Below are positions 1 to 934 of a DNA stretch of 937 nt, in pieces. This DNA is from a phage. Position 1 is the first letter of the stretch. The number at the start of each line of letters is the position of its first letter. The position numbers and the translations under genes were made by a program. The DNA is taken from the sequence record M16226.1; one strand, given 5' to 3'. The notes below the pieces were generated by a model. The model was not told the origin of the DNA, searched no databases, and saw only the letters and a program-made list of their open reading frames with translations.

Positions 1-14
1 CCCGAGGGGGATTT

Positions 15-128
15 ATGAAACGATGGTTTAATCACTGGTATAAACGGTTTTTAGTACGGCATCGCAAGTCTAGACAGCAAGATGATTGGCGGGAAATGGC
101 AAAGCGTAACAATTGCCCACTTCTCTGA
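15..128 (+). CDS. Short ORF encoding a 37-aa strongly basic peptide (MKRWFNHWYKRFLVRHRKSRQQDDWREMAKRNNCPLL); alternatively the C-terminal end of a longer CDS that begins upstream of the window
   Basis: ATG at 15-17 is preceded by a purine-rich Shine-Dalgarno-like GAGGGGG (4-10) with a short spacer; TGA stop at 126-128; a strand-specific intrinsic terminator follows 7 nt later. The frame has no stop between position 3 and the ATG, so an upstream start cannot be excluded. Absent from the supplied ORF track, presumably below its length cutoff. No homolog recognised from memory. Confidence 0.3.
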   Translation: MKRWFNHWYKRFLVRHRKSRQQDDWREMAKRNNCPLL

Positions 129-134
129 TAACCG

Positions 135-157
135 ACGGGGATCAGCTCCCCGTTTTT
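135..157 (+). terminator. Rho-independent (intrinsic) terminator
   Basis: Perfect 7-bp GC-rich stem ACGGGGA (135-141) / TCCCCGT (147-153) with 5-nt loop TCAGC, immediately followed by a T run (153-157). The reverse complement has no downstream U-tract, so it is + strand specific. It sits just after the stop of the 15-128 ORF. Confidence 0.55.
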
Positions 158-269: not shown

Positions 270-289
270 TACTGTATAAATATACAGTA
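270..289. promoter_or_regulatory. LexA (SOS) box, CTGT-N8-ACAG type
   Basis: TACTGTATAAATATACAGTA matches 19 of 20 positions of the E. coli-type LexA consensus TACTGTATATATATACAGTA, with both CTGT (272-275) and ACAG (284-287) arms intact and an AT-only spacer. A -10-like TATAAA lies inside the box (275-280), but no convincing -35 was found on either strand, so the regulated transcript is not identified. Confidence 0.6.
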
Positions 290-380: not shown

Positions 381-403
381 TTAAATAACAGTGTTTCTCA
401 CTT

Positions 404-515
404 CCGTTTTTAAATACGAATCATTATCATTCGTATTCCGCTTTTAAATGAGAATCATTATCATTTGCATTTCACTTTTTAAATGAGATTGATTCTCATT
501 ATCATTCGCATTCAG
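404..515. repeat. Three tandem ~35-bp AT-rich direct repeats; candidate DNA-unwinding element
   Basis: The unit is approximately CG(C)TTTTAAAT-RMG-AATCATTATCATT-YGYATTYC. The TTTTAAAT cores end at 415, 449 and 484 (periods 34 and 35 bp); the ATCATTATCATT cores are at 420-431, 454-465 and 496-506 (copy 3 has a ~6-bp insertion). Each core matches the Fur-box 19-mer GATAATGATAATCATTATC at 13-15 of 19 positions. Confidence 0.6.
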
Positions 516-519
516 GCGA

Positions 520-537
520 GCAGGGCAATTGCCCTGC
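520..537. other. Perfect 18-bp palindrome GCAGGGCAATTGCCCTGC; candidate operator for a dimeric DNA-binding protein, or hairpin/terminator
   Basis: Exactly self-complementary over 18 bp, centred on CAATTG. On the + strand it could form a 7-bp GC-rich stem with a 4-nt loop followed by GCTTTTG (a weak T-tract). It lies exactly between the AT-rich repeats and the first 15-mer direct repeat. Confidence 0.45.
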
Positions 538-542
538 GCTTT

Positions 543-766
543 TGTGCAAATCCGACATTTGCCCCCATGGATTACGCGTGGGCGTGTATGTGCAAATCCG
601 ACAATTTTTGGTAGTGTGCGAATCCGACCCGAAAAATTTTTATAGTGTGCAAATCCGACAATGAATTTTCCCAAAAACTCCAGCAATCACGAACTGCGTT
701 CGAATCCTGTGGAATTAGCTAGAGTATGTGCAAATCCGACATGTGTTGAGATGTGCGAATTCGACA
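543..766 (+). repeat. Array of six 15-bp direct repeats (iteron-like), consensus TGTGCAAATCCGACA
   Basis: Four exact copies at 543-557, 589-603, 646-660 and 727-741; variants TGTGCGAATCCGACC at 615-629 and TGTGCGAATTCGACA at 752-766; a degenerate copy around 694-710. All are in the same orientation. Start spacings are 46, 26, 31, 81 and 25 bp. Most copies are followed by a short T/A tract. Confidence 0.6.
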
Positions 767-894
767 AGATTTTTGTGACTTCGATGGGAGGGTGTGTGAT
801 TGTATGGGTTTGAGGGGAAGATGAGAGAGCGAGAGAAATTTGGGAGGCTAGAAGGATATGGGCGCAGGATTGGTGCGGAGACGATTTGCGGGGA

Positions 895-934
895 TTTTGG
901 GGAAGAGTTGAGATAATTTGGGGAAGATTTGAGT
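895..934 (+). repeat. Second direct-repeat family TTTGGGGAAGA-K-TTGAG (two copies, 21-bp period) within a purine-rich, C-depleted tract
   Basis: TTTGGGGAAGA occurs at 896-906 and 917-927, each followed by (G/T)TTGAG. Related degenerate copies are TTTGAGGGGAAGA (809-821) and TTTGGGAGGCTAGAAGGA (839-856). The array reaches the window edge and may continue beyond it. Confidence 0.45.

Follow-up and report, generated by a model that had tools for sequence, protein, structure and literature searches.

Introduction

In plasmid and P1-type replication origins (pSC101, R6K, RK2 oriV, P1 oriR), co-oriented repeats of 17–22 nt known as iterons, spaced about 22 nt apart, lie beside DnaA boxes and an AT-rich block. 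Short asymmetric motifs held in one orientation also occur on DNA that is moved directionally, as with the FtsK-orienting polar sequences (KOPS), which are 8-mers dispersed over the chromosome. At the cosB R sites of phage lambda and the pacL and pacR boxes of phage SPP1, repeated short boxes with A/T tracts flank the terminase cut. In HSV-1 (herpes simplex virus 1), the boxes of OriS, which are bound by the origin-binding protein UL9, flank an AT spacer in inverted orientation and belong to genome segments that are repeated (PMC12543377). The locus considered here is a 937-nt stretch of phage DNA (sequence record M16226.1; this whole stretch is hereafter the window), which carries six copies of a 15-bp direct repeat at positions 543–766. 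These are copies 1–6 of direct repeat D (DRD1–6) of Escherichia phage T5, and it is tentatively proposed, with slightly less than even confidence, that the DRD array is a polar protein-binding array acting in the pause and restart of T5 DNA transfer.

Like KOPS, the DRD motif is short, asymmetric and held in one orientation on directionally moved DNA, but DRDs are 13-mers gathered within about 750 bp at conserved spacing. Like iterons, the repeats are co-oriented beside DnaA boxes and an AT-rich block, whereas their core measures 13–15 nt, their gaps range from 25 to 81 nt, no rep gene is adjacent, no plasmid matches them, and they belong to the terminal repeat (TR) of a virulent phage, at the injection stop. 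As at cosB and pac, short boxes with A/T tracts flank a terminase cut, but they do so at distances of 86–467 bp, in a single orientation and with none at the other genome end. T5 also encodes a UL9-like helicase and its candidate sites also lie in repeated genome segments, but the DRDs form a co-oriented array rather than inverted boxes.

Identity and Distribution of the Direct Repeat D Array

Among 508 phage records compared by megablast, the window matched T5 best, with 99% identity over its full length. It corresponds to positions 9140–10149 of the T5 genome AY543070, exactly the extent of the feature "injection stop signal (iss)" in the left TR. In AY587007 the same stretch is annotated with palindromes C–J, inverted repeats C′ and D′ and direct repeats A–D (Wang et al., 2005). 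The six copies map to 9672–9895 of that record, "direct repeat D copy 1–6", and copies 7–9 follow just past the TR end. Nine DRD repeats are likewise described in Repeat Region 3, with no role given (Davison, 2020; 10.1101/866236). The six repeats are thus DRD1–6, in the non-coding right end of the TR, and already annotated, and the observation of six irregularly spaced repeats, made in the initial annotation of the window, by itself adds nothing to the existing T5 annotation. The source cited for direct repeat D and the iss region is reportedly the 1987 work of Heusterspreute et al. Since its extent is that of the iss feature, the window is probably the iss sequence as first entered in 1987.

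A search of both strands of the window for the pattern TGTGCRAATCCGACA, allowing up to three mismatches, returned exactly six matches, all on the + strand; 0.06 matches were expected by chance, and six were reached in none of 200 shuffled sequences. The positions and the start-to-start gaps of 46, 26, 31, 81 and 25 nt agree with the initial annotation, as do the TA dinucleotides that precede the copies at 589 and 727 and the T/A tracts that follow most copies. A logo of 38 copies identifies the 13-nt core GTGCAAATCCGAY as the conserved unit, with a weak TA on its 5′ side and a weak T-rich flank on its 3′ side; the GCAAATCCGA part of the core is invariant.

The whole T5 genome, assembled at 121,750 bp, was scanned on both strands for the 15-mer with up to two mismatches. 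Rather than being scattered genome-wide, as a dispersed repeat would be, the copies cluster, with nine at the TR end: DRD1–6 start at 9752, 9798, 9824, 9855, 9936 and 9961 and DRD7–9 at 10305, 10340 and 10477. DRD1–6 recur in the right TR. One additional copy, at 12153 (one mismatch), lies within T5.019, a gene read on the opposite strand, and a tandem pair starting at 78935 and 78950 (78935–78964) lies within D13, with the 64.8% major nick 362 bp to its left. All 12 distinct sites are on the + strand and none is on the − strand, an outcome with a two-sided chance probability of about 5e-4. Translated, the pair in D13 reads VQILQVQIRQ, with CTA and CGA among its codons, and it is kept in at least five related contigs. 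A copy at a distance past the array like that of 12153 recurs in most contigs of Tequintavirus or Epseptimavirus type that reach far enough, and was not seen in the fetched parts of the Klebsiella and My1 loci described below.

Conservation and Spacing in Related Phages

An exact-match scan of IMG/VR returned 65 loci, of which those with multiple matches belonged to T5-like contigs of 104–123 kb; single matches fell in contigs of other sizes, as chance predicts. Across 23 distinct relatives, mean column entropy was 0.119 in the repeats and 0.362 in the spacers (Mann-Whitney p = 2e-8, a value that overstates independence because the 23 sequences are kin). DRD1 is among the most conserved copies, being identical in 21 of the 23 relatives, whereas two related contigs (L018 and L030) have unrelated sequence in place of DRD4. 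Position 6, which may be A or G, swaps between copies in different phages, so that the variant copies pointed out in the initial annotation reflect a tolerated variable position. The paired order of an A copy followed by a G copy, also described there, holds in the window, but that of the first pair is not conserved, as most relatives carry G in DRD2, where T5 has A, and A in DRD3; DRD6 carries G in nearly all of them. Given this, and an identity of no more than 61% between the two pairs outside the repeats, support for the proposed duplication of a two-repeat unit is weak. The stretch at 694–710, put forward as a degenerate copy, matches the repeat at 9 of 15 positions, counted from the sequence, varies among relatives and is not a conserved copy.

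In most Tequintavirus- or Epseptimavirus-type contigs with a whole left array, the gaps are either 46, 26, 31, 81 and 25 or 46, 26, 31, 71 and 35, followed by a gap of about 343, then 35 and often 137. Alignment shows that, in the second pattern, 10 nt have been deleted on the left of DRD5 and 10 nt inserted on its right. DRD5 is thereby displaced by approximately one helical turn in that sub-lineage, while the distance from DRD4 to DRD6 remains 106. The spacing is thus fixed within a genus and differs between genera, with gaps of 15 to 143 in the others, and a lattice of about 22 bp, whose absence from the window had been remarked on in the initial annotation, is absent from every lineage examined.

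Overall, the GTGCAAATCCGAY core is found 7–11 times, at a matching location, in T5-like phages of Escherichia/Salmonella, Klebsiella, Pectobacterium and Vibrio. No word is repeated more often than this core in the corresponding region of T5, Klebsiella phage AmPh_EK80 (Sugarlandvirus), a contig that is probably Pectobacterium phage My1 and Vibrio phage Athena (Ermolyevavirinae), with 7–10 copies in each. The copies are essentially all co-oriented. The A2 proteins of AmPh_EK80 and Athena are 67% and about 40% identical to that of T5, respectively. In Proteus phage Stubb (Novosibvirus), the DnaA boxes, LexA-like palindrome and GCGC site of the region are kept, and the region holds one degenerate DRD-like sequence only and no other repeated word.

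In some Salmonella T5-like phages (L042, L055; KR233164, MK972708), a gene for an HNH homing endonuclease lies inside the DRD array, leaving gaps of 616–699 nt where DRD4 and adjoining copies normally sit; the array therefore tolerates a large insertion. The core also coincides with the T-loop and 3′ T-stem of some viral tRNA genes (GTCGG-TGCAAAT-CCGAC) in contigs unrelated to T5 (L102, L131), and GTGCRAATCC is one base away from the general tRNA T-arm GTTCRAATCC, with the variable purine at the same position. This likeness may well be coincidence. As a look-alike of the DRD, the T-arm scored 9/10 and was judged weak or failed. In an IMG/VR scan with the 14-mer GGTGCAAATCCGAC, most of the matches listed were single matches in unrelated contigs, as chance would give, and included real tRNA T-arms.

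A Putative Array for Pausing and Restarting DNA Transfer

Judged from the alignments, the spacing of the DRDs is under constraint. Four properties indicate a protein-binding array whose bound proteins probably interact in a defined geometry: conservation of the motif above that of the spacers, the single orientation, the spacing fixed within the genus and the 10-nt shift of DRD5 with its compensation. Each copy is a predicted site for one sequence-specific DNA-binding protein and, given the asymmetry of the site, the protein would be bound as a monomer or a flexible dimer. Once the first 8% of the genome has entered, the bound array would form a polar nucleoprotein complex on the DNA at the cell envelope or the tail. 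Such a complex might hold the DNA there, or might capture it for second-step transfer after the pre-early proteins A1 and A2 have been made. The binder could be A2, a DNA-binding protein, or a host factor already in the cell; both are candidates.

The location of the array is consistent with this proposal. It begins 3 nt from the major 7.9% nick, and three more copies lie just past the TR end. The shear point of first-step transfer is estimated at ~9618 (7.9%), which puts DRD1 (T5 9752) about 130 bp past it. The stop in T5 needs a cis signal, the restart needs A1 and A2, and A2 binds DNA; the mechanism of stop and restart was still termed poorly understood as of 2026. In the A2 family, a conserved helical domain at the N terminus, which appears Myb- or HTH (helix-turn-helix)-like by eye, precedes a basic stretch.

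Several points weigh against the proposal. A Foldseek search with the A2 model (pLDDT 83) gave no significant match (best E = 0.88), and the top matches, themselves non-significant, include HTH, Myb and homeodomain-type proteins. A2 and the array do not co-vary, as Stubb has a well-conserved A2 and one degenerate DRD, while Athena has a more diverged A2 and yet a full array. The placement of iss in this region of T5 was made by position only, and the DnaA-box inverted repeats to the left of the array have been favoured as the stop signal (Davison, 2020). The DRDs have been tied to neither the stop nor the restart by any experiment, a role in transfer does not account for the extra copies at 12153 and 78935/78950, and the array straddles the TR cut site, which suits it equally to a role in packaging. 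As for the binder, A2, the small terminase subunit (TerS, also SciB) and the C-terminus of T5.108 are all found in Proteus phages that lack the array, which makes presence and absence uninformative. The DRD is near-invariant while A2, TerS and T5.108 are only about 40–47% identical, and a host factor thus fits better than a phage factor.

Alternative Roles of the Array

It is possible, though unlikely, that the DRD array is instead the site at which the small terminase subunit T5.156 (SciB) assembles and directs the cut at the right end of the TR, and perhaps the nick. The TR end (T5 10219) falls in the largest gap of the array, with six copies 244–467 bp to its left and three 86–272 bp to its right, and the same straddling is seen around the end sequence "...TTGACA...CTGTGGCTC" in Klebsiella (five copies left, five right) and in My1; Athena has copies on both sides of an assembly-defined repeat boundary. 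Independent records begin 209 nt past the match, which is the same end position. Many copies are followed by T-tracts, as in bent pac sites, and T5.156 bears annotations as small terminase and as SciB, a nicking gene, with the major nick 3 nt from DRD1. However, the array and the TR end share the sole large non-coding gap (about 1.8 kb), in which straddling would be about 40% likely by itself. The other cut site, at the left end of the TR, has no DRD copies near it; the other major nick sites also lack DRDs, so that the repeats are not needed for nicking; and Proteus phages have TerS without the array. The polarity of packaging is itself disputed, since "last in, first out" predicts that the right end is packaged first, whereas the left end has been reported to go first (PMC3517423).

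T5.156 (AY543070 107934–108416), which phage records name either "terminase small subunit" or "SciB", a single-chain-interruption gene, has no Pfam match. This double annotation hints that nicking in T5 may be a terminase activity.

An improbable alternative is that the DRDs are iteron-like initiator boxes for the PrimPol-helicase T5.108, forming with the DnaA boxes and AT-rich repeats one origin in each TR and possibly one in D13. In its fuller form, in which the injection-stop region would double as a terminal-repeat origin beside a pre-formed nick, with the D13 pair as an internal origin, the idea has a slimmer chance still; if true, the origin would be present twice per genome, as is OriS of HSV. 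T5.108 ("D2", a relative of UL9) has been proposed as an initiator (Wong, 2013). The order of modules, namely four DnaA boxes, AT-rich repeats and co-oriented direct repeats, is that of many origins. T5.108 carries the Pfam domain Herpes_ori_bp, and its family alignment has the invariant aspartates D110 and D112 in an AMDVD-type stretch that we take to be a primase-polymerase motif. The top structural match of T5.108 in the PDB, of uncertain extent, is the origin-binding protein of HSV-1 on OriS (E = 1e-15, vs. 1e-9 for generic helicases). The reverse complement of the G-variant DRD, ATTCGCAC, agrees with UL9 Box 1, GTTCGCAC, at 7 of 8 positions and that of the A variant at 6 of 8. The conservation of the D13 pair in at least five relatives, with its codons CTA and CGA, which are presumably rare, also speaks for this role.

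The match to Box 1 is weak, being one of about ten look-alikes tried, and the sequence homology of T5.108 and UL9 is confined to the first helicase domain. Neither phmmer nor a family profile found the UL9 DNA-binding domain in T5.108, so that homology to this domain, undetectable by sequence, was rejected, and no RVKNL recognition motif is visible in the T5.108 family consensus. Proteus phages keep T5.108 and lack the array. Three studies cited by Davison (2020) map the origins of T5 close to the middle of the genome, and the same account notes that replication genes stay unexpressed in the first-step stage.

The reading of the repeats as iterons, made in the initial annotation, is only partly supported. 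Co-oriented repeats do lie beside DnaA-type boxes (298–379) and AT-rich repeats (399–507), as in iteron origins, but the spacing does not follow a two-turn lattice of 17–22-bp repeats with a period of about 22 bp, and plasmid relatives are lacking, even at low stringency. No Rep gene was found in or next to the window, whose longest open reading frame, of 80 aa, overlaps the repeats; the flanking genes are short hypothetical pre-early and early genes. The DRD repeats are most likely not plasmid-type iterons.

It is also improbable that the DRDs are weak DnaA boxes, or sites of another conserved host protein, which extend a cluster of DnaA, LexA and Fur-type sites tying the incoming DNA to host proteins ahead of the first phage protein. 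Such a host-factor platform overlaps the transfer model, and it gains from the fact that the T5 stop is independent of phage protein synthesis. The region also holds a perfect LexA box and Fur-box-like palindromes, and the DRD motif is, like DnaA and LexA boxes, nearly invariant from Vibrio to Escherichia hosts. The reverse complement of the core extended by a T, ATTTGCACA, matches 8 of 9 positions of the DnaA consensus TT(A/T)TNCACA (as quoted by Davison, 2020) in T5 and Klebsiella, in the same orientation as the four − strand boxes, but 7 of 9 in My1 and Athena, where A or G stands in place of the final T needed for the 9-mer. Variant DnaA boxes were sought in the same study, in which the DRDs are not listed (Davison, 2020). 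CCGAY, which is equally conserved, lies outside the 9-mer, and none of the other E. coli regulator motifs compared matched; IHF, Fis, CRP, sigma-54, PhoB, marbox, PurR, an NtrC half-site and the LacI operator were all weak or failed. A further point against DnaA is that its relaxed consensus is not known to allow A at position 1, where the DRD always has A.

A plasmid or host origin of the window was rejected, as it matched none of 72,556 plasmids (megablast, blastn) and none of 5,426 E. coli genomes (megablast), as was a structured RNA, Rfam giving only a sub-threshold miRNA match in the AT-rich repeats and no family match, and a promoter scan found no promoter-like site in 543–766.

Neighbouring Elements and the Nick Site

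The elements of the window are collected in Table 1. The order of LexA-like palindrome, DnaA boxes, AT-rich repeats, GCGC nick, DRD array, G-rich stretch, TR end and further DRDs is retained, wholly or largely, in Tequintavirus and Epseptimavirus, Sugarlandvirus, My1 and Thalassavirus.

Table 1. Features of the 937-nt window, in window coordinates; a dot marks a feature given without strand.
Feature	Position	Strand	Remarks
Gene T5.017, end	1–18		
Rho-independent terminator, palindrome C	136–157	+	Ends rightward pre-early operon; AY543070 9275–9296
Palindrome D	270–289	.	Perfect LexA/SOS-box consensus CTGT-N8-ACAG at 272–287 (tACTGTATAAATATACAGTa)
DnaA-type box	298–306	−	TTATCCCCA
DnaA-type box	310–318	−	TTATCAACA
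DnaA-type box	359–367	−	TTATCAACA
DnaA-type box	371–379	−	TTATCCACA
Three AT-rich repeats of ~34 nt	399–507	.	"Direct repeat C", palindromes E–I; 70 nt fewer than the wild-type array
Palindrome J and nick site	520–539	.	GCAGGGCAATTGCCCTGC, then GCGC of the major 7.9% single-strand interruption
DRD copy 1	543–557	+	TGTGCAAATCCGACA; 0 mismatches; 3 nt after the major-nick GCGC
Proposed second nick-signal element	571–580	+	ATTACGCGTG; between DRD1 and DRD2
DRD copy 2	589–603	+	0 mismatches; TA precedes
DRD copy 3	615–629	+	TGTGCGAATCCGACC; 1 mismatch
DRD copy 4	646–660	+	0 mismatches
DRD copy 5	727–741	+	0 mismatches; TA precedes
DRD copy 6	752–766	+	TGTGCGAATTCGACA; 1 mismatch
G-rich "direct repeat A" copies	891–933	+	TTTGGGGAAGAGTTGAG; copies at 896–912 and 917–933

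The major 7.9% nick is on the − strand, between window positions 539 and 540 (annotated at AY543070 9748/9749), and palindrome J, with the T-run that follows it, has a terminator-like score. A two-part nick signal was derived, in which CCYGCGC, with the nick at its end, is followed 30–32 nt on by RTTACRNRTG (533–539 and 571–580 in the window). The second element accompanies 5 of the 17 CCYGCGC sites in T5, which are only the annotated major nicks (AY543070 9748, 22336, 39746, 78573 and 121279), and RTTACRNRTG occurs 9 and 5 times on the two strands of T5; the test is partly circular because the pattern was derived from the same sites. The DRD itself was rejected as part of the signal, since the three remaining major nick sites have none. 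In Proteus phage Stubb (L072 6414–6416), the end of the terminal repeat as called by PhageTerm falls inside the conserved ...CCCTGCGC, the major nick site of T5, and this predicted end may be the nick rather than a true terminus.

The TR ends about 75 nt past the window, at T5 10219, between DRD6 and DRD7; across its right end (T5 10195–10240), ...TTGACAAGTGAAAATTTCTGTGGCTC is followed, after the boundary, by TAAAAACTCAGGCAATCA. The end motif ...CTGTGGCTC is kept in Klebsiella, with the boundary directly after it, and a look-alike of the TR end, CCCAAAAACTCCAGCAATCA, lies between DRD4 and DRD5 (671–690).

The LexA/SOS-box consensus that palindrome D matches is well established. Palindrome D adjoins the DnaA boxes, and T5-like phages of Klebsiella, Vibrio (with two copies) and Proteus have similar palindromes in the equivalent position. 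Each copy of the AT-rich repeat contains a Fur-box-like palindrome (413–428, 447–465 and 485–506), and AATGAGAATCATTATC agrees with the Fur consensus core AATGATAATCATTATC at 15 of 16 positions. With up to three mismatches, six matches to the Fur core were found, vs. 0.05 expected, and, of the Fur-box matches of at least 14/19 in the whole T5 genome, 10 fall within the 10.2-kb terminal repeat, whereas the 101 kb of unique sequence holds 3. FhuA, the receptor of T5, is itself Fur-regulated. Neither LexA and SOS nor Fur and iron are mentioned in the earlier account of the region (Davison, 2020).

Aligned with both complete T5 genomes, the window lacks 70 nt of the AT-rich "direct repeat C" block, following position 443, and shows a C-to-T change at 761 and a few differences at 880–933. 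The change at 761, in DRD6, creates an EcoRI site (GAATTC, 757–762) that is particular to this sequence; wild-type T5 reads TGTGCGAATCCGACA at this copy (...AATCCGACA). Together, the substitution and the deletion suggest that the source of the window was not wild-type T5 but either a mutant made in the laboratory or an early entry of the sequence. EcoRI-sensitive "ris" mutants of T5 were reportedly used in the 1987 work on iss.

Significance for T5 Biology

How T5 halts after 8% of its genome has entered, and how it restarts, has been a question since the 1960s, and the DRD array sits at the stop point. The comparative results that are new here are that its core is kept from Vibrio phages to T5, in a single orientation and at a spacing that is constrained. 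Never given a function, the array offers a precise mutable target for the genome engineering of T5 that is now current, and a probe for the protein that binds it.

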